Positions 18,688 to 37,152 of a stretch of DNA of 37,179 nt are shown one piece after another. The position numbers were made by a program, and so were the translations under genes. How positions within the stretch are numbered: the stretch's first letter is position 1; each line of letters begins with the position of its first letter. This DNA comes from a virus. Under the pieces are notes generated by a model, which was not told the DNA's origin, made no database searches, and saw only the letters and a program-made list of their open reading frames with translations. The DNA is taken from the UHGV virus genome UHGV-0294517; one strand, written 5' to 3'.

Positions 18688-20014
18688 CTTCCACCTCTTC
18701 GATTAGGTATTTCATGTCACGTTCGATTGTGTATTCGAACGCATCCAAGCTGTCAATGTCAGTGCTGCCGTCATCCAAACGCTCATCTTTCCCGACAGCT
18801 TCTTTGTCCCAAACTGCATCCGAAAAAGCAGTTTGCAGAGATTCGCAGTCTTTTGTAATAAAAAACCGCCCAGCCCCCATGAGCTTGACGGTGCATCTGA
18901 TTCTGTCGTTTATAGGTCTTTTCTTTGCTGGTTTGACAGCTATCCACGGAAATTCCTTTTCCACGGCATTGCGGATAGAATTACCAAGGACGGTTTCTGC
19001 ATTGTCCCAGAATACGGACTCTACGTTACAATACTGTACATAGTCTCCACTCTTCACGCACACAGAGTAATCATCTATCACTTCTTGTACAAACTCGCAG
19101 AACAGCTTGTTCAGTCGATTACTGTCGATGTCCTCGTTTTCATCCTTAGCCATGACTCTTCTGGATTTTAAAGCAATCACGTCTCTGTAGTTGTCCGTAT
19201 ATCCTCTGGCAACGAATGAGTGACCAGATTGATTACCACCAAAGTCCAAGCCAATCTCGATTGATGTGATATCCTCTTTTCGGAATTGCTTATGCTCTGA
19301 TTCCTGCGAGAACTCATCCACGATTTCGCATTTGAACGCTTCTGGATTGTCAGCAAACCGCTTATAAATCGCTCCATCTGCTCGTTTCCATAAGCCAAGG
19401 ATGAGGCGGTCATAATAGATTGTACCCTCATATTCCTTGCAGAGTTGCTTAACAAATTCTGGATCCAGAAATGGATTATCAAATATCGTGTACTTTTGGA
19501 GATAGATGTCCAGCTCTACATTGTCGATGAACTCTTTGAGCCAGTGTGTCGGATGTTCTGGGTTGCAAGCTCCATCAAAACAGGAGTACGTCTTATCGAG
19601 ACGGGATTTCAGCATCTGGAACACCTCTTTGTTCCATTTTGCTATCTCATCTCCGTAGCAGTACTTAATGGATGCTCCCTGTATCTTTGCGACTTGGCTG
19701 ACCTTTTCCGCTCCGAGACAATAGACATCCTCTCCGCATACTCTTGCCACATTGCGGTTGTTAATGTTCCCGATTAGATCACTGGTATAGATTTCCCTCA
19801 TCGGTTGGAGTACGTTTCGCTCTATGGATTCTTTGGAGACACCCATGATTACATTTAAGCCGGGAAGTCCAGCTCTCTCTCGGATTCTTTTAGGCACGAT
19901 ATAAGCAGTGTCTACAAAAGACTTTCCAGAACGAACCGCTCCGGACTTGATATTCCATCTATGAGTTGCGTTTATGATGTATTCATTCTGTTTTTTGCTT
20001 AGCTGCATTGTCAT
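18680..20014 (-). CDS. terminase large subunit (PBSX/XtmB-like)
   Basis: Walker A GAVRSGKS near the N-terminus. 444 aa. C-terminal nuclease region. Confidence 0.9.
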   Translation of the reverse strand: MTMQLSKKQNEYIINATHRWNIKSGAVRSGKSFVDTAYIVPKRIRERAGLPGLNVIMGVSKESIERNVLQPMREIYTSDLIGNINNRNVARVCGEDVYCLGAEKVSQVAKIQGASIKYCYGDEIAKWNKEVFQMLKSRLDKTYSCFDGACNPEHPTHWLKEFIDNVELDIYLQKYTIFDNPFLDPEFVKQLCKEYEGTIYYDRLILGLWKRADGAIYKRFADNPEAFKCEIVDEFSQESEHKQFRKEDITSIEIGLDFGGNQSGHSFVARGYTDNYRDVIALKSRRVMAKDENEDIDSNRLNKLFCEFVQEVIDDYSVCVKSGDYVQYCNVESVFWDNAETVLGNSIRNAVEKEFPWIAVKPAKKRPINDRIRCTVKLMGAGRFFITKDCESLQTAFSDAVWDKEAVGKDERLDDGSTDIDSLDAFEYTIERDMKYLIEEVEDV

Positions 20015-20480
20015 GCAATCCTTTCAAGATTTCATCAAGCTTTTCAATTGCTGTTCTGTCCTCGTATTCCTGCTTATCTCTCCATTTGCCCGGTTTCCGA
20101 TTCTTAAGCCAGAAAATCTGCGCTGTTGTGTCTCCAGGTATATATACCTCATCCGTTGCTTGCACAAGTTTCTCTTTTTCGCATAATTTCCCATGCTCAT
20201 CGTAATACTTCTCTTTTACCTTAAAAGTTTTTCTTACTTCACGAGTGCCCCCGAGCGCTCTTTCGAACAATGAATTTTCCACTTGCCTATCAGCAACATC
20301 CTTATTCTTTTTTAGGACTGCCGAAAGTGCCGAATACTTATCCCTCCACGTTCTAAATGTAGAATAAGCAACCCCCATATTCTGAGCAATCTGCTCATCC
20401 GTTAGACCATCTCTAGCCCATCCCTCTATTTTTAGTAAGCCTTCCGGCTCTAGCCATTCCTGATATTTACCTTTTGCCAT
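19983..20480 (-). CDS. terminase small subunit (P27-type)
   Basis: 165 aa with an HTH-like stretch LTDEQIAQNMGVAYSTFRTWR. Start at M40 of the track ORF (AAGGTGGTGAG RBS). Overlaps the TerL start. Confidence 0.8.
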   Translation of the reverse strand: MAKGKYQEWLEPEGLLKIEGWARDGLTDEQIAQNMGVAYSTFRTWRDKYSALSAVLKKNKDVADRQVENSLFERALGGTREVRKTFKVKEKYYDEHGKLCEKEKLVQATDEVYIPGDTTAQIFWLKNRKPGKWRDKQEYEDRTAIEKLDEILKGLHDNAAKQKTE

Positions 20481-20641
20481 CCGACTCACCACCTTTAAAA
20501 CATAATAAAAGCACCCATCTCTGGATGCCAAGAATTTAGGACTACTGCTCGAAAGGATTGCAAATGCCAACAAAAACCAAAATAACCAAATACACAATCA
20601 AAATTTATAAGAAAAAGGAGGAACCTTGCAGTATTCCACAA

Positions 20642-20714
20642 CGGGTATAGCAGGACTCGAACCTGCGACACATCGGTTAACAGCCGATTGCTCTGCCAAC
20701 TGAGCTATACACCC
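20642..20714 (-). tRNA. tRNA-Asn (anticodon GTT)
   Basis: Full cloverleaf folded by hand, 73 nt. Acceptor stem 7 bp (one G-U). D-stem GCTC/GAGC. Anticodon stem ATCGG/CCGAT with loop CTGTTAA. T-arm GCAGG-TTCGAGT-CCTGC. Discriminator G. No encoded CCA. Confidence 0.9.
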
Positions 20715-20896
20715 GTAGGATGCCTTTTATTGACATCCTTTACCCTATCCGCGCTCGGGTACTGACACTAAATATAGATTGCTGAATCTATTTTTGTTTG
20801 TTTTGCAGATCTGCGGATATCTGCGTTTTGTGATATCACTCCGTAGCACTTCCACGGCATTCCGGATTTTTAATATTTACCGTGATATGCTACTAA

Positions 20897-20940
20897 ACCG
20901 TGTGCAGGGATCGAACCTGCTTGTCCCAACTGACCACGGC
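20897..20940 (-). pseudogene. tRNA-like minihelix / degenerate tRNA remnant (acceptor stem plus T-arm only)
   Basis: GCCGTGG ... GCAGG-TTCGATC-CCTGC-ACACGGT. A 6-bp acceptor-like stem and a canonical T-arm, but D- and anticodon arms are replaced by a 14-nt linker. Confidence 0.4.
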
Positions 20941-20982
20941 ATAGAAACACCGCCAGACAAGAAAGGGTAAAAGTCCGGCGGT
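20940..20982 (-). terminator. hairpin terminator candidate downstream of the late-activator gene
   Basis: A 9-bp stem CCGCCGGAC / GTCTGGCGG (one G-U) with a 14-nt loop, followed on the minus strand by TGTTTCT. Confidence 0.4.
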
Positions 20983-21062
20983 GTTCTGAATGTTTGGAAA
21001 GATTGTTTTAGAACAATATACAATCGTTCTAGGATAATTATAGCATAAGTAAAATATAAATG

Positions 21063-21485
21063 CTATAAATCTTTAAGCTGTGCGCTTATAATCTGCGATA
21101 CTCGCGCCTGGGTATATCCAATTTCATCTGCGACTTTTTGCTGGGTTTTCCCCTCAAGATAGTGCAACTCAAATATCTCTTTAATCTCCGGATCATCAAT
21201 CCCATTTATGTAGTCTTCGACTTCTTCTTGCTCTTTCAGGATCCGCAGCCTGTCCGCTTCTTTTCGCCTAATCTGCTGTCTTACATTCTCTTCTTCGTAA
21301 GGGTCATACATTTGTACAGATGTTCTCACTTCGGTGTACGGAAAATCTGCGCTGGATCCCGTTACCTTCCCCATGACAACAGTCGATTCCCGTTCACAGA
21401 GTTCTTGTATCTGGTTCTCAATCCGGATAAGTCTATCTTTGTTTGGCTTATACTTTTTCAGTGTTTTCTTGTCCAACTCAATCAC
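21063..21485 (-). CDS. late-gene transcriptional activator with a sigma-70 region-4-like HTH (ArpU/RinA-type position)
   Basis: C-terminal LEGKTQQKVADEIGYTQARVSQIISAQLKDL resembles sigma region 4. Located just upstream of the terminase genes. Confidence 0.7.
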   Translation of the reverse strand: MIELDKKTLKKYKPNKDRLIRIENQIQELCERESTVVMGKVTGSSADFPYTEVRTSVQMYDPYEEENVRQQIRRKEADRLRILKEQEEVEDYINGIDDPEIKEIFELHYLEGKTQQKVADEIGYTQARVSQIISAQLKDL

Positions 21486-21702
21486 CTCCCGGGATCCGCT
21501 CTTTTATGTTGTATTTCTCTGCTATGTACTCCACAGCGTCCTTATTCGCCCTCTCGCCGCCTTTAAAGTCGCAGGCAAAGGCTTTATGCCCCTTTTGCTT
21601 TAAAGCCGTCTCACAGGGCTTCCTCGTTGCCATAGTGTACGCTTCAATCTTTCGGATAACTCCTGCTGTCTCCTTTCTACGTTTCATGCTCTCTCTGGTC
21701 AT
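21478..21702 (-). CDS. hypothetical protein (74 aa)
   Basis: ORF overlapping both neighbours (coupled operon). Confidence 0.5.
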   Translation of the reverse strand: MTRESMKRRKETAGVIRKIEAYTMATRKPCETALKQKGHKAFACDFKGGERANKDAVEYIAEKYNIKERIPGGD

Positions 21703-22295
21703 GCCGTCACCTCAATTTTCTCTCCTGTCAGCTCTTCCAACTTCTGTCGCATTTCTTCCACTGTCATTTTCTTTGGTTCTTTGCGCTCCCAGATGAGTTC
21801 AAGGTTGCTTTTAATAAACACATCTTCTATGCGTCTGAGTGATTCCGGAGTAATCCTATAGACTTCAACGATGTCTCCTCCTGTATAATCTTCCCATTTC
21901 AAGTCATCATCATAACCGCCTATATTATTGCATCCGCCTTTTCTCACTGCCATCCCAGCCAATACAAGATACATGTTACCATCTCTTTGCTCAACTACCA
22001 TCCCATCTTCCAAATCTGCCTTGGTAAATTCTTTGTCCATGTAATCACTCCATTCTAAGATTTTATAATTGTACTTTTCCGCAAAATCACGAGTCGAATA
22101 TTCTCCGTTTCCGTAATAACACGTTCCTTCGTTGCGCATATAATTTGTATTTTTCAAATAACTTTTTCCGTTACACCACTTCATTCCATGTTCATGCATC
22201 TGCTTGCAGAAGTCTTTCGCTTCCTCCTCAGTCTTACAGTACACCGCAATCTTATTGTATTTATTTTTAAATTCTTTCCATTTAAACTTTTTCAT
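21699..22295 (-). CDS. hypothetical protein (198 aa)
   Basis: Clean ORF. No recognised family. Confidence 0.6.
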   Translation of the reverse strand: MKKFKWKEFKNKYNKIAVYCKTEEEAKDFCKQMHEHGMKWCNGKSYLKNTNYMRNEGTCYYGNGEYSTRDFAEKYNYKILEWSDYMDKEFTKADLEDGMVVEQRDGNMYLVLAGMAVRKGGCNNIGGYDDDLKWEDYTGGDIVEVYRITPESLRRIEDVFIKSNLELIWERKEPKKMTVEEMRQKLEELTGEKIEVTA

Positions 22296-22299
22296 CTTC

Positions 22300-22491
22300 C
22301 TACCTCACTATCTTTCGCACAATCCAATCCAAAAACACCACAAATAGCAGTATCGGAAATCCCGCAGCCATCAGGTAATCCGCACCTTCTAGTTTTACAT
22401 CCTCTTCCAATCCTGTCTTTAAAGTAATCACGGTTCCCAGCCCCAGGATGTAGTACAGAGCCAGGAATGCGATTGTGATTAAAATGTCCAT
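22300..22491 (-). CDS. small membrane protein (63 aa, two predicted TM helices)
   Basis: Start at M20 of the track ORF with a CAAGGAGGAATAGC RBS. Hydrophobic ILITIAFLALYYILGLGTVI and FPILLFVVFLDWIV. Confidence 0.55.
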   Translation of the reverse strand: MDILITIAFLALYYILGLGTVITLKTGLEEDVKLEGADYLMAAGFPILLFVVFLDWIVRKIVR

Positions 22492-22492
22492 G

Positions 22493-22882
22493 CTATTCCT
22501 CCTTGTATGGTTCTGGTAACGACTGATACGCCAAAATTCTTCCGTCATATATCCCGTAAGTCCAGTACCATAAATCCTCTTTAAATCTCATTCTCTTTAC
22601 CGGATATTCTTCATCGTCACACGTTACAAGATATACATCTTCTTTCTTAGGCATATTTTGTACTGAGTAAGGAATCCAGTCATTGTCTTTCTTGCTGTCT
22701 TCATATCCTTTCTGATACCATTTTCTTCGGCTGCATTCTCCGCACTTCTGGACTTCGTCCATGTGGGAACGAATGATTTCTTTTATCCATCTAATACTCA
22801 CATAATCATCACACATTCCGAATGATTCAAACTCTATCGCATGATCTTCAATCTCTTCCAAGATCTTCTCTAGTACGTTCAT
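22493..22882 (-). CDS. hypothetical protein (129 aa)
   Basis: AGGAGACGAAATAA-ATG RBS. A CGECSRRKW stretch. Confidence 0.6.
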   Translation of the reverse strand: MNVLEKILEEIEDHAIEFESFGMCDDYVSIRWIKEIIRSHMDEVQKCGECSRRKWYQKGYEDSKKDNDWIPYSVQNMPKKEDVYLVTCDDEEYPVKRMRFKEDLWYWTYGIYDGRILAYQSLPEPYKEE

Positions 22883-22995
22883 TTATTTCGTCTCCTATTT
22901 TTCTTATCCATAACACAATAACCTTTTTCGCAATAACATTCTGTTGATTTATAGTAGTTTTTATAATATTTGCATTTAATGCACTCTTTTTTCAT
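22879..22995 (-). CDS. Cys-rich mini-protein (38 aa; MKKECIKCKYYKNYYKSTECYCEKGYCVMDKKNRRRNK)
   Basis: GGAGGCGTAGTA-ATG RBS. Stop overlaps the next ATG (ATGA). Not in the track. Confidence 0.4.
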   Translation of the reverse strand: MKKECIKCKYYKNYYKSTECYCEKGYCVMDKKNRRRNK

Positions 22996-23088
22996 TACTA
23001 CGCCTCCAACAACTCTAGTTCCTCGATTTTATCCATTAAATCCATCTCAGGATAATTCTTTTTTGGATATCGTTGATATTTTCCACAT

Positions 23089-23247
23089 GGTTACTCCTCA
23101 TCACTTTCAATTCTCTCTAACCTTTCGTATCCATTCCATCCATGTTCTGCTCCACATTGTTTGATACAATAATAATCTTCGCCGCAACAATGATCGCATC
23201 TATTGCAATCTGGTTCTTCGTCATCTACTGTGTAAATTATTGTTTTC
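23089..23247 (-). CDS. Cys-rich mini-protein (52 aa; ...CNRCDHCCGEDYYCIKQCG...)
   Basis: GGAGGTAGAG-TG-ATG junction. Translated by hand. Confidence 0.45.
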
Positions 23248-23399
23248 ATCACTCTACCTCCAACAATCCCGCTTCTATAAATACACCTTCCAATAACTCG
23301 CTCATTTTATTAGTATCAATGGTAATCGGCTCACATGGAAACTCTTCCTGATTTCCACAGCACGCATACAATTTTGCAATTAAAATATCATATTTTTTC
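23247..23399 (-). CDS. mini-protein (50 aa) ending LLEVE
   Basis: GGAGGTGGAGTG-ATG junction. The C-terminus copies the YopX C-terminus. Confidence 0.45.
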
Positions 23400-23400
23400 A

Positions 23401-23463
23401 TCACTCCACCTCCAAATCACCATTATCTATTCTCTTTGCTTTAAAAAGGATTTCTCTATTCAT
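23401..23463 (-). pseudogene. YopX remnant: N-terminal 15 aa plus C-terminal 5 aa of YopX fused (MNREILFKAKRIDNGDLEVE)
   Basis: About 45 nt of near-identity to the 5' end of the intact YopX gene (24030-24075). The reading frame then jumps straight to the YopX C-terminus and stop. Confidence 0.45.
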
Positions 23464-23629
23464 CTTTTACCTCCACTTCATTATCGTATTTCATGCACTT
23501 TCCATCCTTGTACGCTATGCATTTCTCTTTAATGCACGGATGTAACACTGGTCTGACAAAATCTCCATTCCCAATAAACATTGCTTTTACCTCTTCTTTT
23601 CCCGTTAAATCAGGGCAAAATAAAATCAT
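23456..23629 (-). CDS. Cys-rich mini-protein (57 aa)
   Basis: ATG overlaps the YopX stop (GGAGGTGGAGTGATGA). Four Cys. Confidence 0.45.
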   Translation of the reverse strand: MILFCPDLTGKEEVKAMFIGNGDFVRPVLHPCIKEKCIAYKDGKCMKYDNEVEVKDE

Positions 23630-24075
23630 CACTCCACCTCCAACAGCTCTGGATTGTCAAAAATGTTTCCGATAACTTCCGTTCTATTTGGATTCCGATT
23701 ATATTTAAAAACATCGTTATTGGTGCATTTTTTATTTCCTCGTCCACATACTGCCCATGATCCCCTCCATTCGCTCCAAAACACAGCACCTACACGATAT
23801 TTTATCTCTTCGCCATCTTTTAAAAACGGACTTCCATCATAGTCATAACTATATCTGAGAATATCATTCTCCCAGATCTTCTTATCGTTTTTGTCGGTAA
23901 GTCCGGTGTACTGGCATAAAGTACTTGGAGCAATCTCGCATTTTAGTAATATATCTGGTAATTCTTTGCTAATTTTGTGTATTTCCACTTTTCCAGAAGG
24001 ATATGCAACAACATACCCTTCCACCCATTCTCCATTATCTTTTCTCTTTGCTTTAAAAAGTATTTCTCTGTTCAT
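23629..24075 (-). CDS. YopX-family phage protein
   Basis: N-terminal MNREILFKAKRKDNGEWVEGY and C-terminal IGNIFDNPELLEVE are family hallmarks. Start chosen at M9 of the track ORF (GGGAGAAAGAG RBS). Confidence 0.8.
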   Translation of the reverse strand: MNREILFKAKRKDNGEWVEGYVVAYPSGKVEIHKISKELPDILLKCEIAPSTLCQYTGLTDKNDKKIWENDILRYSYDYDGSPFLKDGEEIKYRVGAVFWSEWRGSWAVCGRGNKKCTNNDVFKYNRNPNRTEVIGNIFDNPELLEVE

Positions 24076-24077
24076 AA

Positions 24078-24233
24078 TTACTCTTTCTCCCATGACCAAT
24101 TAACCTGTTCCATAACCATATCTCTCATAGCTTCTTCGATTTCCTCATCAGTTACATCATCACCAAACTCTTCTTCAAATGTCATATTTGTTCCAGCAAA
24201 ACCATAATTTGCCTCCGCTTTTACTTTAATCAT
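24078..24233 (-). CDS. small acidic protein (51 aa)
   Basis: GGAGGGTGGAAGA-ATG. ATGA-coupled to the Lar-like gene. Confidence 0.5.
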   Translation of the reverse strand: MIKVKAEANYGFAGTNMTFEEEFGDDVTDEEIEEAMRDMVMEQVNWSWEKE

Positions 24234-24409
24234 TCTTCCACCCTCCTGTTCCATTTCCCTATAGCAGTTGTTTCTAAAGCACATCTTCGCGTTGCGACTC
24301 CGCATTCTTCGCAGTACACGAAAGCTGATATAACTTTTTCGTCAAATCCATAATGGATTTTCATTGTCGCTTCTCCACCACAAAACGGACATTTCTTTAA
24401 TTCTCCCAT
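24230..24409 (-). CDS. Lar-family restriction alleviation protein (zinc ribbon)
   Basis: MGELKKCPFCGGEATMK...VYCEECGVATRRCALETTAIGKWNRR matches the Lar-family pattern (CPFCGG ... C..CG ... AI..WNRR). ATG 24409 preferred over the GTG at 24418 (GGAG 8 nt upstream). Confidence 0.7.
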   Translation of the reverse strand: MGELKKCPFCGGEATMKIHYGFDEKVISAFVYCEECGVATRRCALETTAIGKWNRRVEE

Positions 24410-24424
24410 GTTACTCACTCCAAT

Positions 24425-24922
24425 CTAATTACGCATTCCTAATCTTCTACAAACAGTGTTATACCCACAGTCTAGTTTTTCAGCGATTTGATTGATTGTT
24501 AATCCCTTATTTCTAAGAAAAATCACATCTTCTTTTGCAACATCACTTCTTGAAACAATATGCTTCATCCTATCTCCAAAACTTCTTTTATATTCTTCTG
24601 AAACATATTGAACTAAATTATGTTCTTTCGTGTGTAATGATTTTTTAATTACTTGAAGATTAGAAATATTATTATTTAATTTATCTCCATCAATATGGTG
24701 AACATGAATTTCTGAACCAAAATTGAATCCAACAATATGTTTACCAATTATCCTGTGTACCGACACTTTGTCATGCTTTATCGAAATTCCAGCATACCCA
24801 CGATAAAGATAAATTTTATATTCCTCTTTAGGTGTAATATTTCTTCTACTGCATTCTTCTTCTATTGCTTTTTCTAAAATTGAATAATCTACTATGCAGT
24901 TACATGCGTTTTCAAATTTCAT
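24425..24922 (-). CDS. HNH endonuclease with C-terminal HTH (free-standing homing-endonuclease-like); AT-rich gene
   Basis: HNH motif VHHIDGDKLNNNISNLQVI...H. C-terminal GLTINQIAEKLDCGYNTVCRRL. By eye the locus is markedly AT-richer than flanking DNA. GGAGGTTTAA-ATG RBS. Confidence 0.8.
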   Translation of the reverse strand: MKFENACNCIVDYSILEKAIEEECSRRNITPKEEYKIYLYRGYAGISIKHDKVSVHRIIGKHIVGFNFGSEIHVHHIDGDKLNNNISNLQVIKKSLHTKEHNLVQYVSEEYKRSFGDRMKHIVSRSDVAKEDVIFLRNKGLTINQIAEKLDCGYNTVCRRLGMRN

Positions 24923-25289
24923 TTAAACCTCCGAAATCTAATCTCTGGCCGCACTTCAGACAGCATTCGTGCTCTTCTGCATGTCCATCAATAAAACATA
25001 TTGACTCTCTGCAACTTGGGCAAACGAAATAACCTAATTCATAGTCTACTTCTTCTGGCTTCTTCGCCGTATCACGCTCTTTCAGTTCCTGCATCTGCTC
25101 CAGCTGCTTTGCGCAATTGTTATATTGGTTCAAAATATCGCACACAAACCGTCCCATCTTGCACTCTGCGCATTTATCTTCCAGTTGCTCTCCGTTTAAC
25201 TGATCTGGATACTTGCACAGGTTGTCGCAGATATGCTCCATCATTTCCGTTGTGATCCCATCCATCCATGTTTCTTCTGTTTTCGCCAT
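24912..25289 (-). CDS. Cys-rich hypothetical protein (125 aa; multiple CxxC pairs)
   Basis: TAGGAGGAATGACTA-ATG RBS. CDNLC, CAECKMGRFVC, CPSCRESIC, CCLKCG. Confidence 0.6.
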   Translation of the reverse strand: MAKTEETWMDGITTEMMEHICDNLCKYPDQLNGEQLEDKCAECKMGRFVCDILNQYNNCAKQLEQMQELKERDTAKKPEEVDYELGYFVCPSCRESICFIDGHAEEHECCLKCGQRLDFGGLNEI

Positions 25290-25507
25290 TAGTCATTCCT
25301 CCTACACCTCATATCTTTACAAAAATACAATTCCGTCCCTCTCTTTGTCTTTACATACTCAAAATCTCCGATGATTTCCCGTCCACAGGAAGAACAGATA
25401 TGTACTTCATTTTTCTTCGGATTCTCTTTCTTTTTTTCATAGCCTGCTGTAAATACCTCCGCATTAATATCCGGTTTGGATTCGACATCGCCCTGTTGAG
25501 TCGGCAA
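25289..25507 (-). CDS. zinc-ribbon ORF (72 aa) with only a TTG start; possibly the C-terminal part of the upstream gene separated by a frameshift
   Basis: Protein-like sequence with CSSCG...C..C, but no ATG or RBS. It begins exactly where the overlapping 193-aa ORF turns Arg-rich and low-complexity. Confidence 0.35.
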   Translation of the reverse strand: MPTQQGDVESKPDINAEVFTAGYEKKKENPKKNEVHICSSCGREIIGDFEYVKTKRGTELYFCKDMRCRRND

Positions 25508-25932
25508 CTGGTCCGTACCCAGCCTTCGTGAAACTCCATGTAATTTGCGATTGTTCCAAAGATATCCTTAACCGAAGTTTCTTGTTTCTTTGACTCAGGC
25601 AGCATATCGTTATCCTTCAGGAAGTTTTTAAACGTTTCAATACTTGCATCGATTCCGCTCTCTTCGCTTATTGCTGCATAGATGTTCTGGATCGTAAGTC
25701 CGTATTCGATCATGCACTTAATTTCTCCCTTGTACGGTTCGTATTGTTTTCTTTTATTTTCCATTTTTCTTAACCACATCCTCTTGTTTGCTATTACCCT
25801 CTTTTTCACTTCTTTTCCAGTAATATCCTCAAGTACTCTGCAGATATGCTCATCCGTGCATCCGAGCTTTACCATCTCTTCGATCTGGAACTTGTAGGGA
25901 TCCAGAAAGTGTACTGGTCTACTCATTTTCAA
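25351..25932 (-). CDS. HTH-containing hypothetical protein; the last ~55 codons are probably out-of-frame read-through
   Basis: N-terminal 138 aa is protein-like (HTH-like LGCTDEHICRVLEDITGKEV). The tail after ...YMEFHEGW is R/K-rich junk overlapping the 72-aa ORF. Confidence 0.5.
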   Translation of the reverse strand: MKMSRPVHFLDPYKFQIEEMVKLGCTDEHICRVLEDITGKEVKKRVIANKRMWLRKMENKRKQYEPYKGEIKCMIEYGLTIQNIYAAISEESGIDASIETFKNFLKDNDMLPESKKQETSVKDIFGTIANYMEFHEGWVRTSCRLNRAMSNPNRILMRRYLQQAMKKRKRIRRKMKYISVLPVDGKSSEILSM

Positions 25933-26110
25933 CCTCTCTTTCCAGCCACTCTTTTTGGCTCTTGTACAAATTCAGGTATTTATCACGGTTTTCTTCGTAC
26001 AGATCGTTTTCTAAATCCTCATCTATTCTTGTAAGTATCATCTTCACTGCGGAGATTTCTGGTGTATCAATTTCTCCTGTTATGTTGTTTAAATGATCAT
26101 TGTTCGTCAT
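25919..26110 (-). CDS. hypothetical protein (63 aa, acidic)
   Basis: ATGA-coupled to the upstream small ORF. Confidence 0.5.
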   Translation of the reverse strand: MTNNDHLNNITGEIDTPEISAVKMILTRIDEDLENDLYEENRDKYLNLYKSQKEWLEREVENE

Positions 26111-27126: not shown

Positions 27127-27489
27127 TCACAGCCTTTCTGTATCTATCTGCATTCCAGATTGGTATTCGCGGTATATTTGCATCCAATCATCCAGTTCCA
27201 TCGTAACAAGGATTTTATGATTGTTTTTCTTATGGAATACAGCGGGAAGATTTCCTGTTCTATTCGCTGCGGCATCTCTCTTTGCTTGATCCATCCAGTC
27301 ATAAAGTCGCATCTGCTCTTGATGTTTCGCTTCCACATGAATTAAGGGGAGACCAACTACGTCTGAAGCATCACCTGTATTTCCACAGTATTGCGCTGTT
27401 CTGTGTGCTTCTTTATATCCATAATCACGGAAGATACCAGCTAATTCCCGTTCAAATCTTGCGCCTTTCTTTTTACTATTTACTGCCAT
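27127..27489 (-). CDS. Holliday junction resolvase, Hjc-like PD-(D/E)xK nuclease
   Basis: GARFERELAGIFRDYGY ... GDASDVVGL ... IHVEAKH matches the Hjc-type motifs (FEREL, D-hydrophobic, E-x-K). Start at M13 of the track ORF. Confidence 0.7.
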   Translation of the reverse strand: MAVNSKKKGARFERELAGIFRDYGYKEAHRTAQYCGNTGDASDVVGLPLIHVEAKHQEQMRLYDWMDQAKRDAAANRTGNLPAVFHKKNNHKILVTMELDDWMQIYREYQSGMQIDTERL

Positions 27490-27589
27490 TCCATTTCCTT
27501 TCTTTGTAGTGCAGGCAAGGTTCATCCTTTTCCTTGCCTTTGCACTCCCAAAATCTCTCGCAATGTATGCATTCTCTTGTTTTCTTCAT
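27476..27589 (-). CDS. small Cys-rich ORF (37 aa; CIHC...C...C) overlapping the resolvase start
   Basis: Hand translation. Weak RBS. Speculative. Confidence 0.25.
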   Translation of the reverse strand: MKKTRECIHCERFWECKGKEKDEPCLHYKERKWNGSK

Positions 27590-27598
27590 GTGATCGCC

Positions 27599-28009
27599 CT
27601 ACATGAACGGAAGTTCTTCATCAATTCCATCCGGAACGTTTTGGAATCCGTCAGAATCCGGCTGTCCATATTGCGGAGCAGACTGTCCGCTGCTTCCCTT
27701 GCTTTCGCAGAACTCAAAACTATTCACGATCAACTGCATCCCGTAATGCCTCACGCCGTCTCTTTCATAGTTGTTGTTTCTCATTTCTCCTTCGATCAGC
27801 AACTTTGTCCCTTTCCCCACATTGCATTTTTCAAATGTTTCCGCAATCTTTCCGAATGCTACACACTGGAAAAAGTCAGCTTCTGAATCTCCGTCTCTCT
27901 TAAATCTGCGGTTTACGGCAAAGTTGAACCTTGACACCACTTTCCCGTCATTTGTGCATTTCATTTCCGCATCTGCTGTCAGTCTTCCGCATAAAATAAT
28001 TTTATTCAT
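27599..28009 (-). CDS. ssb: single-stranded DNA-binding protein
   Basis: OB-fold N-terminus (MNKIILCGRLTADAEMK...). Gly/Gln-rich linker. Acidic C-terminal tail DEELPF. Confidence 0.9.
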   Translation of the reverse strand: MNKIILCGRLTADAEMKCTNDGKVVSRFNFAVNRRFKRDGDSEADFFQCVAFGKIAETFEKCNVGKGTKLLIEGEMRNNNYERDGVRHYGMQLIVNSFEFCESKGSSGQSAPQYGQPDSDGFQNVPDGIDEELPFM

Positions 28010-28022
28010 ATCAATTCACCTC

Positions 28023-28868
28023 TTAATTTCCAAACAACGCCGCTGCTGCGCTCTGTCCTCTTTCGGAAGATTCAGTTTTTTCTTCCTGCGACTGTTCCAT
28101 GTCAATAATCTCCGCATCGCTATCGTTATCGACGTATGTTTTTGTTCCGTCATCGTTTATCACTGCCATATCTGCATCCATTGCCGACATCATATCGATA
28201 GACATGATTCCCCATTTAGAGATCAACTGGCGCAGCATAGTTTTATACGCCATTCCGTCAAAGTCCTTTTCCCAGAACGTGTACCCCTTTTTCGCCTGAT
28301 ATCCTTTTGAATACTTTAATGCATGGGCTTCCATTTTCTTTTTGCTCCAATAGATCGCCTTTTTAAACCCATTCGTATACTCAAACATTGCATAATATCC
28401 GATTGTTTCAGCCTGTTCTCTTGCTTCTTCATCCTCAATCAGATGTACCTCAATCTCTTCATTCAAAGGATCGAAACGGACAAGCTCACCTTCTTTAATC
28501 GCCAGTACATTAAGTTTTTTGTACTGTCCGGAACGGATTGCAAGCTGGATATACCCTTTGTATCCAAGCTGGAACTGCGCCACCTTGCCTTTGTTTCTGT
28601 CATTAAACGGTACGAGGTAATACTGTCCCAACTGCGGAGACGGTGAAAGGTTCAGCGACTCCCCAAGCAGCGCACCGGAAAGGATCGATTGATTCGTGCA
28701 TTCCTGTAATGCTGCATTGTTGTTTACAGCTGATACAATTGCGGAAATAAATCTCTGTCCGCTCTTTCCACCGATCACATTGTTGATCTGGTTTTTAACT
28801 GCTTCCTGTGTTAAATATGCTGCGATTCCTGTGCTTTTTCTTGCTGTTAAGCTATTTCCTACTGCCAT
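28023..28868 (-). CDS. recT: RecT-family single-strand annealing recombinase
   Basis: 281 aa resembling RecT (…AQFQLGYKGYIQLAIRSGQYKKLNV…). Adjacent to SSB and the exonuclease. Confidence 0.85.
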   Translation of the reverse strand: MAVGNSLTARKSTGIAAYLTQEAVKNQINNVIGGKSGQRFISAIVSAVNNNAALQECTNQSILSGALLGESLNLSPSPQLGQYYLVPFNDRNKGKVAQFQLGYKGYIQLAIRSGQYKKLNVLAIKEGELVRFDPLNEEIEVHLIEDEEAREQAETIGYYAMFEYTNGFKKAIYWSKKKMEAHALKYSKGYQAKKGYTFWEKDFDGMAYKTMLRQLISKWGIMSIDMMSAMDADMAVINDDGTKTYVDNDSDAEIIDMEQSQEEKTESSERGQSAAAALFGN

Positions 28869-28887
28869 TTTTTATATCCTCTCTCTC

Positions 28888-29784
28888 TTATAATGGTTTA
28901 AATTCAATATTTCTGCTATCAAAGAATTCCTTCAGTGCAAGTGCATCTGCTGTTGTTAGCAATGCTTTAAATGCAATCCAGACTGGAAATTCTTTCACAC
29001 CTGCCGAAGAAACGACTTCATTTTGTTCTGCAACAGGAGGATTCATGCATTCTTCAAAAGATTTTGCATCTGTAAATCCAATCTGTCCGGGAAGATCATC
29101 TTCTTTCTTCTGGGACTCTGCTGCCTTTTTCGCTTCCTTCTCTGCTTTCAATCTTGCCTGCTCTGCTTCATGTTCTGCTTTTTTCTTCTGGATTTCTGCA
29201 AGTCGCTGTCCTTCGCTTAACGCCCTGTTGATATCCAGAGTTGATTTATAGACTTCTAATGCTTCAAAGCCAAATTCCGGTAATTTCGAAAGCGTATCCA
29301 CATCTTTCTCCACGCTTGTAATAAATGCGTTCATAACATCTTCGATGAACCTCATGGATGTTGTTTTGTTTAACCATCTACTGTCAAAAATACGTTCCAA
29401 AGAAATTTCAAACGGTGTCGATTTACTGTTCCAAAGTTCCTCGATTTGCTTCCGTTTTTCCTGCTTCTCGTACTCTTCAAATTCCTTAATTTGCTTGTCG
29501 ATAAGGTTAATAGGATCATTAATAAGCTTAATTAAGGCGTTAATTTGAGTCTTAAATTCGTTAAATGGCTCTAAATAAGCCTTTTCCAGTCTTATTCTTT
29601 CGTCGTTTAAGGCTTTTTTCAGCTTATTTAAGCTTGCTTTATCTGATTTAGCATCCTTAATTTGCTCTCCGGTGTACACTAAATTACTGTGGTCTTCTAC
29701 TATTTTTTGTATTTCTGACCTTAATTCTTCATAATTAAATGTAATTTTCTCCGGCATTTTCACTTCATTGACTCTTAATTCCAT
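28888..29784 (-). CDS. coiled-coil phage protein of unknown function (possibly DUF1351-like) between recT and the exonuclease gene
   Basis: 298 aa, K/E-rich helical. Family assignment is recall only. Confidence 0.55.
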   Translation of the reverse strand: MELRVNEVKMPEKITFNYEELRSEIQKIVEDHSNLVYTGEQIKDAKSDKASLNKLKKALNDERIRLEKAYLEPFNEFKTQINALIKLINDPINLIDKQIKEFEEYEKQEKRKQIEELWNSKSTPFEISLERIFDSRWLNKTTSMRFIEDVMNAFITSVEKDVDTLSKLPEFGFEALEVYKSTLDINRALSEGQRLAEIQKKKAEHEAEQARLKAEKEAKKAAESQKKEDDLPGQIGFTDAKSFEECMNPPVAEQNEVVSSAGVKEFPVWIAFKALLTTADALALKEFFDSRNIEFKPL

Positions 29785-29797
29785 GTTTTTCTCTCCT

Positions 29798-30457
29798 TTA
29801 TCTTCTTATTACATCCGGAAGGATAAGCGGCGGGCATTCATCTCGCTCCACGTATCCCCAGAATCGTTTTCCTTCTTTCATCAGGTATTCCATGTCTTCT
29901 TTCACATCTTTTCGTTCAAAATGGTAATGTTTCGTTTGAACGAATACCTCACCAGCATATTCACTTTTTAGCTGCGCTTTTAACTCGCAAAAATCAGCCT
30001 CAAGAACTGCCATATATAGCAAGCACTGGCAATAATAATGATCTGGGATCTGGCGATTCCATCTCTTTCTCATATTTCCATTTAAAATGTTCGTTGTCTT
30101 ACATTCCCAGATTCCAAGTCTCCCATCTCCATCAAAAAGCCAACCATCTACTGAAGCCTGCGCCCAGGGATATTTATCATTGCGAAAACTGTTGTTTTCC
30201 TCATATCTCACTTGGTATTCTGGGAAGTCCAGCCGAAAGAGTTCTCTTAATAATGGCTCTGCCTGTGTACCGTATTTAATATAGGGAAGATTCGAAATGT
30301 CTTTCGCTTCTTTTCTCCCTGTTTTCAACTCCCACAACTCTACATTTGTCATGTATGGATTCTTCCCGATTACAGCGGCAATTTCAGAACCGCCGATTCC
30401 ATTTTTTCTATTTTTAAGCCATTCTTCATGGTTGCTAAGTATTGTTTTTGTAATCAT
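29798..30457 (-). CDS. YqaJ-like viral recombinase-domain exonuclease (lambda Exo-like PD-(D/E)xK)
   Basis: IGGSEIAAVIGKNPYMTNVELWELKTG... and WECKTT motifs. Start at M86 of the track ORF (GAGGAAAAG RBS). The upstream 85 codons are Arg-rich read-through overlapping another gene. Confidence 0.8.
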   Translation of the reverse strand: MITKTILSNHEEWLKNRKNGIGGSEIAAVIGKNPYMTNVELWELKTGRKEAKDISNLPYIKYGTQAEPLLRELFRLDFPEYQVRYEENNSFRNDKYPWAQASVDGWLFDGDGRLGIWECKTTNILNGNMRKRWNRQIPDHYYCQCLLYMAVLEADFCELKAQLKSEYAGEVFVQTKHYHFERKDVKEDMEYLMKEGKRFWGYVERDECPPLILPDVIRR

Positions 30458-30546
30458 TTGACTTTTCCTCAAATTTTCTCTATACTTTAACTGATTTATT
30501 TTTTCCTGAGTGCTCGAGGGTTGCCGCCCTGTGACAGCACTCTTTT

Positions 30547-30735
30547 TTAATACCCAAACACCAGGTACCACGCCAGTAGCACCAAGATAAACCCGATCAC
30601 TGCCACTCCAGCTCTGATCCAGTAAGGCTTGTCCTTTTCTTCTGGCAGCTCTACGGAGACTGACCGGATATCCCAACTGTTTAAAGCGTTGGGCTGTTGA
30701 GTAGTCTGGCAATGATAAGTTCCTTTAATTTCCAT
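30547..30735 (-). CDS. small membrane protein (62 aa, C-terminal TM helix)
   Basis: Strong TAAAGGAGGAAGAAC-ATG RBS. Hydrophobic AGVAVIGFILVLLAWYLVFGY. Confidence 0.55.
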   Translation of the reverse strand: MEIKGTYHCQTTQQPNALNSWDIRSVSVELPEEKDKPYWIRAGVAVIGFILVLLAWYLVFGY

Positions 30736-34556: not shown

Positions 34557-35582
34557 ATGGGATTTCGTTTCAGAAAAAGTTTTAAAATTGCTCCCGGTAT
34601 AAAGTTTAATCTTAACAAGAATAGCCATAGCTTCACGTTTGGTGGAAAAGGAATTCACTACACTGTTAATTCTGATGGAAAACGGACAAAAAGCTTTGGA
34701 ATTCCAGGGAGCGGACTGTATTACACAGAAACCAAAAACGGAAAAACTAAAGAAAACAAGGGGAAAACAATGAGTAAAGCATCGAATAAGAGTGGTGGTG
34801 GATGCCTTAGTGTTATTGCATTGCTGATAATGCTCTCTATTGCACTTGTAGTGTATTCTTTTTTATGGATACCAGCGATACCGGCATTGATATACTGTGT
34901 TGTATCCAAAAAATTCCGGCCATACAGGATCAGGAATACTGTGATATGCTCGATTGTGTTTGCAACATCTCTAATTATCTTTATATGGCTTGGATCTCCG
35001 TCTGAATTGAACTCTATATCTGCAGAGTGGGGGAAAGAAGAATTTAATATCGGAGATGTAACGGAGGTGAAAATTACTCCAAGCCCGTCGGACGCAAAAA
35101 TCGAAAGCTTGGAATTATCCGAAAATAATATCGCAGATCTCGAATATAAGGACGGAAAAGCCGTCATTACATTTACGGGTTCTGGGAATGCATCACTATT
35201 TTTTACGGCGAATGGAGAAATTAAAAGCAGTTCGAAAACTATTACCGTTATAGATCCGGAAGAAGAAGCGAGAATAAAAGCCGAGGAAGAAGAACGGATT
35301 AGGTTGGAACAGGAAGCTCAAGCAGCTGAACAGGCGCGTATCGAGCAAGAACAGGCTGCGGCTGCTGAACAGGAAAGGATTGCACAAGAGCAAGCTGCAG
35401 CGCAAGCAGCACAAGAGCGGGCTGCACAGCAAAGCCAAGATGACCCCATCGTGTATATAACAAACACTGGGGCAAAGTATCATAGCGCTGGATGCAGAAC
35501 TTTGAAATCTAAGATAGAAAAACATCTGTCTGAGGTACGCGGAGTTTATGAACCGTGCGGCATTTGCCATCCACCACAATAA
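34557..35582 (+). CDS. membrane protein: N-terminal DUF4236 domain, two TM helices, Ig-like/beta region, E/Q/A-rich coiled coil, and a C-terminal Ada-like Cys/His zinc-binding motif
   Basis: MGFRFRKSFKIAPGIKFNLNK...GIPGSGLYYTE is the canonical DUF4236 N-terminus. TM segments LSVIALLIMLSIALVVYSFLWI and ICSIVFATSLIIFIWL. C-terminal TGAKYHSAGCRTLKS...LSEVRGVYEPCGICHP resembles the Ada N-terminal zinc-ribbon pattern. Confidence 0.75.
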   Translation: MGFRFRKSFKIAPGIKFNLNKNSHSFTFGGKGIHYTVNSDGKRTKSFGIPGSGLYYTETKNGKTKENKGKTMSKASNKSGGGCLSVIALLIMLSIALVVYSFLWIPAIPALIYCVVSKKFRPYRIRNTVICSIVFATSLIIFIWLGSPSELNSISAEWGKEEFNIGDVTEVKITPSPSDAKIESLELSENNIADLEYKDGKAVITFTGSGNASLFFTANGEIKSSSKTITVIDPEEEARIKAEEEERIRLEQEAQAAEQARIEQEQAAAAEQERIAQEQAAAQAAQERAAQQSQDDPIVYITNTGAKYHSAGCRTLKSKIEKHLSEVRGVYEPCGICHPPQ

Positions 35583-35757
35583 AATAAAAACCGCCCCTGC
35601 GCCAACAGAGACGGTATACATATCCGAAGATATGCTATTGAAATCCACGAATATTGTATCATCTTCGGAGCAGTCACGCAAGCGGAACATTTGTTTTGCG
35701 CTGGCTGTTATTTTTGTGCCAATTTTAAATATATTTTACAAAAGGAGAGTGATGCAA

Positions 35758-37152
35758 ATGCCAGAAAAAATACTGCGGTGTGCCATATACATCCGCGTCT
35801 CCACATTTGAGCAGAGCGTACATGGCAAGTCTCTGCAAGCACAGAAAGAATGCCTGGAGCAATACGCAACAGACAACAATATGTCTATAGTAGGCGTCTA
35901 TGCGGACGAGGGAAAGACTGCCAGAAAAGAATTGAAGAAAAGAAAAGCCATACACGCTCTTGTAGAGGACGTAAAAAGGGATAAAATTGATGTGATAATT
36001 TTCTGGAGACTCGACAGATGGTTTCGAAATCTTTCTGATTTTTATAAGGTGCAAGATGTGCTTGATGATCATGGTGTTCGCTGGATTTCCGTATCAGAGC
36101 CCGGTATAAACATGGAGACAAGAGATGGACGATTGCAGTTAAATGTAGTGCTGTCGATCGGTCAAAACGAAGTAGACACCACATCCGAGCGAATTAAATT
36201 TGTGAATGAAGCATCTATAAGACAGAAAAAGCTAATATTTGGAGATGCAAATATGCCTTTTGGTTATAAAACAGGTGTTGTAGATGGAAAGAAATGCATG
36301 GTTAAAGATTCGGAAACAGAACACATGGTGGAAGATTTTTTTGAATATTTTAGAAATCATAACTCCAAGAAGGGCGCTATCCGGTACATGCAGGAAACCT
36401 ATGGAATTGATTTTAGCTATGGCATGTTACGGACGATGTTATCCAGCGAATTTTATAAAGGGACGTACAGAGGATACCCTTATTGTCCAGCATACCTGTC
36501 AGAAAAAGAATGGGATGAGATGCAAACTATATCGAAAAGAAATATTAAAAACACGCCGTCTGGTAGAATATACCTATTTACAGGTTTGATGCGCTGTCCT
36601 GTGTGCGGACAGAAATTAGTTGGCACCGGATGCTCATCAATTATCAACCGTAAAACCGGAGAAAAAAGAACATACTGCTACTACCGTTGCAACAGAGCGC
36701 TTATTGATCATATTTGCACGTATAGGCATAGGGTAAGCCAGAACCTTATCGAAAAATATCTGCTCGAAAATCTTGAAAGAGAGTACGAAAAGTATAAGGT
36801 CCGCACCAACCAGATCAGCGAAGAGTTAAAAAAGCAAAAGAAAGCGAAAGATCCGAAAAAGCTTAGAAAAGAAATGGAACGATTAAATATATTATTTCAA
36901 AAAGGGCGGATCTCTTACGATTACTACGATAAGGAGTACCAAAGATTGGAGAGAGAATATTCCGCTTCTGCTGCTTTTTGCGAGGAAGAAGAGACGAGAA
37001 ACCTGCATTATGTAGAAGAACTATTAAAAACTGACTTTCGCCAGATGTATGATTCGCTGTCTTTGGAAAATAGACGTTCTTTTTGGAGATCTACAATACA
37101 GGAAATTTATCTAAACGAAGACAATACGATTAAAGGTGTTGATTTTATTTAG
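35758..37152 (+). CDS. large serine recombinase (phage integrase)
   Basis: N-terminal resolvase catalytic domain AIYIRVSTFEQ...(Ser nucleophile)...FWRLDRWFRN. Recombinase domain. Zinc ribbon CPVCGQKLVGTGC...CYYRCN. C-terminal coiled coil. Start could be ATG 35752 or 35758 (AAGGAGAG RBS); the track ORF begins upstream at 35548. Confidence 0.9.
   Translation: MPEKILRCAIYIRVSTFEQSVHGKSLQAQKECLEQYATDNNMSIVGVYADEGKTARKELKKRKAIHALVEDVKRDKIDVIIFWRLDRWFRNLSDFYKVQDVLDDHGVRWISVSEPGINMETRDGRLQLNVVLSIGQNEVDTTSERIKFVNEASIRQKKLIFGDANMPFGYKTGVVDGKKCMVKDSETEHMVEDFFEYFRNHNSKKGAIRYMQETYGIDFSYGMLRTMLSSEFYKGTYRGYPYCPAYLSEKEWDEMQTISKRNIKNTPSGRIYLFTGLMRCPVCGQKLVGTGCSSIINRKTGEKRTYCYYRCNRALIDHICTYRHRVSQNLIEKYLLENLEREYEKYKVRTNQISEELKKQKKAKDPKKLRKEMERLNILFQKGRISYDYYDKEYQRLEREYSASAAFCEEEETRNLHYVEELLKTDFRQMYDSLSLENRRSFWRSTIQEIYLNEDNTIKGVDFI

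Follow-up and report, generated by a model that had tools for sequence, protein, structure and literature searches.

The closest described counterparts of the element considered here are the linkers of modular theory (Susskind and Botstein), known as the boundary sequences of lambdoid phages, in which a short conserved sequence at a border joins unrelated modules and exchange proceeds by general or phage recombination. Boundary sequences are reported to be undetectable at most mosaic joints, and mycobacteriophages offer an isolated case of a linker in Island3, whose adjacent genes gp67 and gp68 share 18 C-terminal residues (PMC3029335). UHGV virus genome UHGV-0294517, analysed here as one stretch of 37,179 nucleotides (the window), carries an array of small genes, open reading frames (ORFs) A, C, D and E, joined to one another and to a YopX gene by a repeated junction that comprises the last codons of YopX, a Shine-Dalgarno (SD) sequence and a stop codon overlapping the next ATG. 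As in Island3, a common C-terminal tail on adjacent genes is the footprint (PMC3029335); as in the lambdoid linkers, the same 18-mer stands at the joints of unrelated genes (it ends at least four families and precedes more than ten), its flanks reassort combinatorially, and breakpoint peaks and a 380-bp insertion or deletion (indel) coincide with it. In contrast to the Botstein linkers, this is a defined stop/SD/start unit of 18-24 nt, apparently derived from YopX, that is reused in one slot, with at least four unrelated families and in at least 119 contigs.

Other systems share some of these features. In T4-type phages, repeated regulatory motifs, the promoter early stem-loop (PeSL) cassettes, flank small ORFan genes in a hyperplastic region, and recombination between copies of the motif inserts, deletes or replaces genes while expression is kept (PMC2839356, PMC4122927). 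The PeSL motifs are transcriptional, consisting of a sigma-70 promoter and a terminator hairpin located between genes, whereas the junction described here is translational and overlaps coding sequence; with neither promoter nor hairpin, it does not qualify as a PeSL. The start-associated sequences (SAS) of Cluster K mycobacteriophages are asymmetric repeats of about 13 nt with an SD core a few nucleotides upstream of ATG, found at non-structural genes of different families, sometimes including the upstream stop codon, and rare elsewhere (PMC3203893). The junction departs from the SAS consensus, GGGATAGGAGCCC located 3-7 nt upstream of the start, and only position and SD content are alike; SAS extend over half a genome, their proposed role is in translation initiation, and no shared tail or combinatorial exchange has been reported for them (PMC3203893). 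In E. coli phages, recombinases of the RecT and Red-beta type have been shown to promote the formation of mosaics where homology is short or diverged (PMC3945230). The window resembles those cases of relaxed (Rad52-like/RecT) recombination in being a temperate phage with RecT and an exonuclease, with exchange among related phages and prophages, but the homologies used in E. coli phages are tens to hundreds of bp long, compared with a patch of 18-24 nt in this Lachnospiraceae phage (PMC3945230). Integron cassettes have attC inverted repeats and the tyrosine recombinase IntI; here there are no inverted repeats and the sole integrase among the ORFs scanned is a serine recombinase, and the region is neither an integron nor a diversity-generating retroelement (DGR).

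Our best reading, to which we assign a probability of roughly 0.7, is that the array would have been shaped by homologous recombination at a conserved boundary (linker) sequence, namely the YopX tail doubling as SD together with the overlapping start. What is new here is a linker that is a translational stop/SD/start unit from a protein tail, reused combinatorially and imposing the same C-terminal peptide on unrelated proteins.

The junction repeat and its distribution

A search of the whole window for TTGGAGGTGGAGTGATGA with up to three mismatches returned four matches, all on the minus strand within 22992-23643 (J1 to J4, Table 1), compared with a mean of 0.04 in 100 shuffles, none of which reached four. 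Read in gene sense, each copy encodes ..L-E-V-E-stop and carries a perfect SD sequence, GGAGGTG, seven bases before ATG; in J1, J2 and J3 this ATG overlaps the TGA by 1 nt. An earlier note on this DNA, made from the sequence alone, had expected a self-comparison to reveal repeats, and these four copies and a direct repeat of the YopX 5' end (D1, below) were found. Its statement that near-identical junctions chain the mini-genes applies to three of the seven boundaries plus one degenerate copy (J4), the A-to-relic, D-to-F25 and E-to-next boundaries being different. In other loci the exact junction directly precedes ORF E.

The junction context was found at none of the approximately 45 other gene starts on the same strand, which have quite different ribosome-site contexts; hence the junction is not the generic ribosome-binding site of this phage. 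No inverted repeats were found in 22500-24400, promoter-like and terminator-like sites did not exceed the shuffled expectation and none lay at the junctions, and no Rfam family besides a tRNA was detected in 20000-26000. The lack of these signals from the array indicates that the mini-genes lie in one long transcript and depend on the junction SD. The strong restriction of the repeat to one slot could also mean that a dedicated gene-capture or diversity-generating system (integron-like, DGR-like or driven by a homing endonuclease) recognises the junction as its specific site; a gene for an HNH endonuclease is located some 0.8 kb upstream of the array, and PeSL-type mini-circle cassettes are a precedent (PMC2839356). 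Such a system is very improbable, given that the locus has no inverted repeats or attC-like structure and no template repeat/variable repeat (TR/VR) pair, and that no integron integrase occurs among the subset of ORFs scanned, in which the sole integrase is a serine recombinase. The HNH gene, carried by only a few related loci, is itself probably a sporadic (homing-type) insertion. The description of the region as diversity-generating, given in the earlier note, is apt at the population level, whereas dedicated machinery was not found.

Beyond the window, the exact 18-mer occurs in the viral contigs of IMG/VR counted above; in species-representative prokaryote genomes (596 Gbp) it has 49 matches, mostly in unrelated taxa and consistent with chance. 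The loci compared below (L numbers) are mostly metagenome-derived viral contigs, most of them found via the exact junction; each was oriented, and both sides of the junction were translated. On its upstream side the junction ends many YopX variants (..GNIFDNPELLEVE), the WLEIT family of 85-98 aa (..LEEYFELLEVE), ORF C (..GLLEVE), the gene F25 (..ELEMLEVE) and several relics. On its downstream side there are at least a dozen genes, including A, C, D, E, NAL62 (62-aa MNALEK), KIPD (MKIPDCDF), KIPK (MKIPKKVQ), MKIYDK and NVL (MNVLEK), and the 129-aa MNVLEK gene of the window directly follows the junction in other phages. A single 36-nt upstream context is followed by up to seven different downstream genes, and a single downstream gene is preceded by up to nine upstream contexts: an identical YopX 3' end leads into six different genes, and an identical WLEIT relic into seven. 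Among the matches listed, 48 upstream and 46 downstream context types form 70 combinations, with seven four-gamete violations (pairs of upstream types that share at least two downstream types). In gene-order strings the small genes appear in many orders between conserved flanks (F2 ... NVL-TM3-F4-F5-F8), and the block consisting of ORF A, a YopX relic and ORF C stands behind three different upstream genes (YopX, Cys11 and a WLEIT-type gene). The cultured phage phiRgPS_6 has another combination, in which Cys11 is followed by a variant of the junction and then by ORF C.

With comparison loci that are mostly metagenome-derived, the combinatorial arrangements might be thought to be assembly artefacts, that is, chimeric contigs joined at a shared repeat. 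A repeat of 18-24 nt is shorter than the k-mers typical of assemblers, the same arrangements recur in independent samples, and different arrangements are found in cultured, completely sequenced phages (such as phiRgPS_6) and under what look like IMG isolate-genome IDs (such as the three regions of 2545555826), all of which makes an artefact extremely improbable. The three viral regions under IMG genome ID 2545555826 (L009, L075 and L078) have KIPD, KIPD and the MKIYDK gene as their respective downstream cassettes; judged by the numbering they apparently belong to one genome, consistent with the idea that co-resident related prophages could recombine.

Origin of the junction and the ends of homology

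Loci found via YopX itself (n = 78) are unbiased for the junction, and 44 of them have the exact 18-mer (51 of 78 with at most one mismatch). Nearly all of the remainder keep the 5' half (TTGGAGGTG), and in distant relatives the 3' halves vary (e.g., GGAATAGATG, GGAATAAATG, GAGCGATGA and AGATAATGA). Because the Pfam YopX profile ends at residue 146 of 148, the ..ELLE tail is evidently intrinsic to YopX, and doubles as the SD of the next gene. The variable 3' halves imply that an SD can work with less than the full 18-mer, and the exact recurrence of the 18-mer on unrelated genes therefore argues for common descent via recombination rather than convergence. We infer that YopX was the source from which the tail passed to the other families.

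The alternative at issue here combines convergence with illegitimate recombination: selection for a strong SD and a stop/start overlap would have produced the junction, and random, homology-independent joins, filtered for intact genes, would have given the mosaicism. GGAGGTG is the perfect anti-16S core, and an SD in this frame forces the codons E-V; distant homologues of YopX and ORF C keep the 5' half and use other 3' halves; breakpoints also occur at boundaries that lack the junction; and in-gene chimeras (P0108, P0116 and the HNH-YopX tail fusion of L112) show that illegitimate joins take place in this region. This explanation is nonetheless unlikely, since identity is 18/18, and often extends to 21-24 nt, including positions outside the SD (TTG, the final GAG and TGATGA), in at least four unrelated families with fully combinatorial flanks, since a clean indel has a junction copy at each edge, and since some 45 other starts in the genome, coupled or uncoupled, use quite different SD contexts.

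Breakpoints were mapped by aligning 21000-26000 to all fetched loci and counting the ends of homology, which pile up at gene borders: 23625-23639 (33 high-scoring segment pairs), 23400-23429 (peak 23400-14) and 23235-23279 (peak 23235-49). The 380-bp block of ORF A, relic and ORF C is present in the window, in L014 and in loci of like arrangement, and absent from L047, L072, L074 and L100. A copy of the junction stands at each of its edges, its flanks share about 97% identity, and the 20 nt common to the two alignments are the junction. Recombination between two copies of the junction, or an insertion targeted to it, would produce such a structure. The presence or absence of this block and the many gene orders constitute the cassette variation among relatives that the earlier note had anticipated; its central proposal, that recombination at a junction of YopX tail and ribosome-binding site shuffles small genes into a conserved slot, is supported by the reassorting flanks, the pile-up of breakpoints, the 380-bp block and the native position of the tail at the YopX C-terminus.

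A separate observation concerns the first ~60 nt of YopX (MNREILFKAKRKDNGEWVEG; 24000-24089, minus strand), in which the DNA sequence is conserved among YopX alleles that have diverged elsewhere. Many homology blocks begin at 24075-24089 and end at 24000-24014, which suggests a second recombination linker at the YopX 5' end.

Gene relics and small genes of the array

The YopX relic consists of the first 15-16 codons of YopX and the LEVE tail, with no retention of the YopX domain; it is homologous to YopX in DNA but is not a YopX protein. Within it, 55 nt form the direct repeat D1, 87% identical to the YopX 5' end (24021-24075). The earlier note took the relic to be an internal-deletion derivative of YopX and a sign of recent duplication or deletion. 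The deletion, which is in frame, is confirmed, and the source is different: the relic matches the resident YopX at 43 of 47 nt, with unrelated sequence upstream, compared with 46 of 47 nt, plus 30 identical upstream nt, for the full-length YopX genes linked to ORF A in L101, L044 and L109. Being nearer to these A-linked alleles than to the resident gene, the relic is not a recent duplicate of the latter. These alignments identify it as a deletion derivative of a second YopX allele, located downstream of ORF A in relatives. The gene order in L044 is A, YopX, junction, C, and the order in the window is best explained by two steps: an A-YopX-C ancestor lost approximately 390 nt of YopX, and the block was then placed behind another YopX at J1. 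Had the deletion within YopX itself taken place in two steps, an intermediate ending ..DNGDLLEVE would be predicted, and a search of IMG/VR found none. The YopX relic occurs in 11 viral contigs. On its 3' side the join falls 1-3 nt ahead of the 18-mer, and the alleles available show no clean microhomology there.

Local tandem duplication and decay, in which YopX and its neighbours were duplicated within the genome and then reduced by deletion, would account for a direct repeat of 55 nt shared by the YopX 5' end and the relic, and for two deletion scars in the array. It is highly unlikely in view of the closer match of the relic to A-linked alleles of other phages, the occurrence of the A-relic-C block behind three different upstream genes in other contigs, and the mini-genes being unrelated to one another.

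A second type of relic, in which a DUF7167-linked 5' allele is joined at the same point, is found in L067 and L068; both look as though the two D1 arms had recombined in a genome resembling the window. Direct descent of these two loci from the window genome was rejected, their flanks being only 86-92% identical to the window.

The 95-nt spacer between ORFs D and E contains a second gene relic, F25, which the earlier note had missed. Four relatives (L014, L041, L047 and L072) have an intact F25 gene of 70-72 aa, whereas the relic has a frame-shifting internal deletion of 125 nt between two AAAATAT repeats, of which the copy at 23076-23082 is retained. Further relic tails in other loci include a 24-codon WLEIT tail and a frameshifted YopX tail in L028.

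Three in-gene chimeras indicate that illegitimate joins also occur in the region. P0108 switches after ..AGLL from ORF C to the C-terminal portion of a different small protein; P0116 begins as a Cys11-family N-terminus and continues as ORF C from ..DILIAKLY onwards; and in L112, a helix-turn-helix (HTH) protein related to the HNH_3 + HTH gene of the window is fused to a YopX tail (..IFDNADLLEVE).

The resident YopX product has a full-length match to the Pfam YopX profile (E = 8e-18; 65.1 bits versus a cut-off of 22.4; profile positions 2-128 of 128 on residues 7-146). ORFs A, C, D and E are evidently conserved small genes under purifying selection, with pN/pS ratios (nonsynonymous to synonymous polymorphism) across alleles from related loci of 0.20 for A (15 alleles), 0.17 for C, 0.19 for D and 0.11 for E (9 nucleotide alleles), so the conservation of the mini-ORFs on which the earlier note had relied is real. 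Its description of most mini-proteins as having four or more Cys is accurate for A (4), D (6) and E (5) and not for ORF C, which with just two conserved Cys does not count as Cys-rich. The LLEVE or LEVE tails that it attributed to several of them are carried by YopX, ORF C and the relic, the C-terminal residues being EVEVKDE in ORF A and ESDEE in ORF D.

No Pfam or PHROG family matched A, C, D or E above threshold; ORF D has a weak match to DUF7565 (E = 0.002, below the cut-off). ORF A has homologues in 87 clusters at 90% identity, from M. (Mediterraneibacter) gnavus and Blautia, with no Pfam domain in any of them. ORF C has 28 homologous clusters and ORF D has 15; for A, C and D alike, the homologues are all small unannotated proteins of the same phage/prophage group. 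The few source names given for clusters of A, C and D homologues are M. gnavus, Blautia, Coprobacillus and other Lachnospiraceae. An AlphaFold2 model of ORF D from a 12-sequence alignment was unusable (predicted local distance difference test, pLDDT, 51.7; predicted template modelling score, pTM, 0.26). The Cys patterns make zinc binding by A, D and E plausible, and with it the zinc-ribbon label that the earlier note gave to the small genes. The small proteins are presumably accessory, possibly host-takeover or anti-defence factors.

Alleles of ORF A have one of two endings, ..NEVEVKDE, which is apparently followed by YopX or its relic, or ..NEVERESE/G; in the gene-order strings the neighbour is YopX or relic, or gene F18. 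The switch between the two endings lies at 23456-23480 (minus strand), at GAAGTGGAG, which resembles the core of the junction.

Table 1. Features of the window, with positions counted from its first nucleotide.
Feature	Coordinates	Strand	Description
Junction J1	23626-23643	-	exact TTGGAGGTGGAGTGATGA; links YopX to ORF A; YopX tail codons, SD GGAGGTG, TGA and ATG
Junction J2	23398-23415	-	exact copy of TTGGAGGTGGAGTGATGA; links YopX relic to ORF C
Junction J3	23246-23263	-	TTGGAGGTAGAGTGATGA, 1 mismatch; links ORF C to ORF D; right edge of 380-bp block
Junction J4	22992-23009	-	degenerate TTGGAGGCGTAGTAATGA, 3 mismatches; links F25 relic to ORF E
YopX gene	23629-24075	-	148 aa, intact; Pfam PF09643; PHROG 8684/98; last codons TTG GAG GTG GAG TGA (LEVE and stop) are the 5' part of J1
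ORF A	23456-23629	-	57 aa, MILFCPDL...; 4 conserved Cys; overlaps start of relic by 8 nt
YopX relic	23401-23463	-	20 codons in frame, MNREILFKAKRIDNGDLEVE; breakpoint ~23417/23416; ~390 nt missing relative to L044 allele
ORF C	23249-23401	-	50 aa, MKKYDILIAKLYACCG...GLLEVE; only 2 conserved Cys
ORF D	23091-23249	-	52 aa; 6 Cys, 4 invariant (C15, C18, C28, C32; CxxC...CxxxC); putative small metal-binding protein
F25 relic (D-E spacer)	22998-23088	-	ends ...ELELLEA and stop; identified by alignment with L014, L041, L047 and L072, all carrying the full gene
ORF E	22879-22995	-	38 aa, MKKECIKCKYY...; 5 conserved Cys; basic tail NRRRNK; overlaps 129-aa gene by 4 nt
129-aa gene	22493-22882	-	MNVLEKILEEI...; conserved right flank of variable region in gene-order strings; PHROG 15198
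Lar gene	24418-24230	-	restriction alleviation
HNH endonuclease gene	24425-24922	-	free-standing HNH_3 + HTH
RecT gene	28023-28868	-	single-strand annealing recombinase; Pfam RecT, E = 1.8e-44
YqaJ-type exonuclease gene	29798-30712	-	partner of RecT; Pfam YqaJ, E = 8.1e-25
Serine recombinase gene	35548-37152		serine integrase, at prophage end; sole integrase among ORFs scanned

The window is an essentially complete genome of a temperate siphovirus of the Ruminococcus (Mediterraneibacter) gnavus phiRg type. In addition to the genes of Table 1, it encodes a replisome organiser, a RinA/sigma-like late activator, a terminase, an amidase endolysin and an antirepressor. The small-gene segment, situated between the replication and recombination genes and the late activator with every gene on the minus strand, is a hypervariable accessory-gene region of the phage. 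The best-matching R. gnavus phages match 22300-24500 only in patches (16-29% covered, 84-94% identity), which already indicates mosaicism; two published papers on R. gnavus phages make no mention of YopX, mosaicism or the junction. RecT and the YqaJ exonuclease belong to a full phage recombination module (27127-30712, minus strand) that also comprises DUF1351, SSB and a PDDEXK_15 nuclease. A DUF7167-like ORF in the 24078-24418 region (minus strand) has a listed start at 24305, and its relatives begin at MIKVKAEANY (~24233); from that start it would be 51 aa long, with an ATGA stop/start overlap with Lar. A tRNA-Asn (GTT) gene is located at 20641-20715 (minus strand), between a small-terminase-like gene and the late activator, and related R. 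gnavus phages have tRNA-Ile or tRNA-Ala near the same place.

Proposed recombination at the junction and its meaning

In the mechanism that we favour, small genes would be separated by a portable boundary of 18-24 nt, comprising the YopX ..LLEVE codons, the SD GGAGGTG and a stop overlapping the next ATG, and the presence of this boundary at the ends of several unrelated genes would offer a brief stretch of homology that is aligned with gene borders. Recombination between copies, whether in co-infecting or co-resident related phages or within one genome, would swap, insert or delete whole genes, and the downstream gene would always keep a working SD and start; an in-frame stop would also be kept wherever the upstream frame runs into the junction. 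The RecT/YqaJ pair of the phage would be the likely catalyst, and the exchanges are presumably homology-driven and RecT-dependent. Deletions that end at the junction would leave relics, as may have happened here to YopX and F25. The process is population-level mosaicism and not a dedicated diversity generator.

Several points weigh against this mechanism. Since most loci were retrieved through the exact junction, it looks more ubiquitous than it is, and near-identical YopX copies, an unbiased comparison, show only 4 downstream versus 2 upstream context types. The tail of ORF C could be old or convergent, not recently acquired; in 28 of 28 clusters its homologues have ..GLLE(V/A)(E/K) followed by a variable end. 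Mosaic breakpoints also fall at boundaries without the junction, e.g., the YopX 5' end at 24000-24089, so the junction is not the sole point of exchange, and selection for intact genes also gathers breakpoints at gene ends. Finally, 18-24 nt is short even for single-strand annealing recombinases.

A bolder form of the proposal is doubtful, and distinctly so: beyond passive homology, the junction may be a self-propagating, translation-ready recombination site that resembles an integron attachment site, serves Lachnospiraceae phages and is a target that a phage function (RecT/YqaJ, perhaps together with a nuclease) recognises or preferentially breaks, forming circular cassettes, actively capturing small anti-defence or host-takeover genes and, as a by-product, giving unrelated proteins the LLEVE C-terminus.

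Clear linkers are rarely seen, and this junction is an unusually clean and abundant one, reused across dozens of gene combinations. It is not a new kind of system; the case bears on an old question of phage evolution as a clean, testable example of a known mechanism (Botstein linkers, T4 PeSLs). The phage group includes cultured representatives, its host is known (R. gnavus ATCC 29149) and a RecT system is encoded, so the question of linkers becomes directly testable. Where a linker overlaps coding sequence, unrelated proteins can end up with the same C-terminal peptide, and in gut phages the junction region marks a slot in which small accessory genes turn over.

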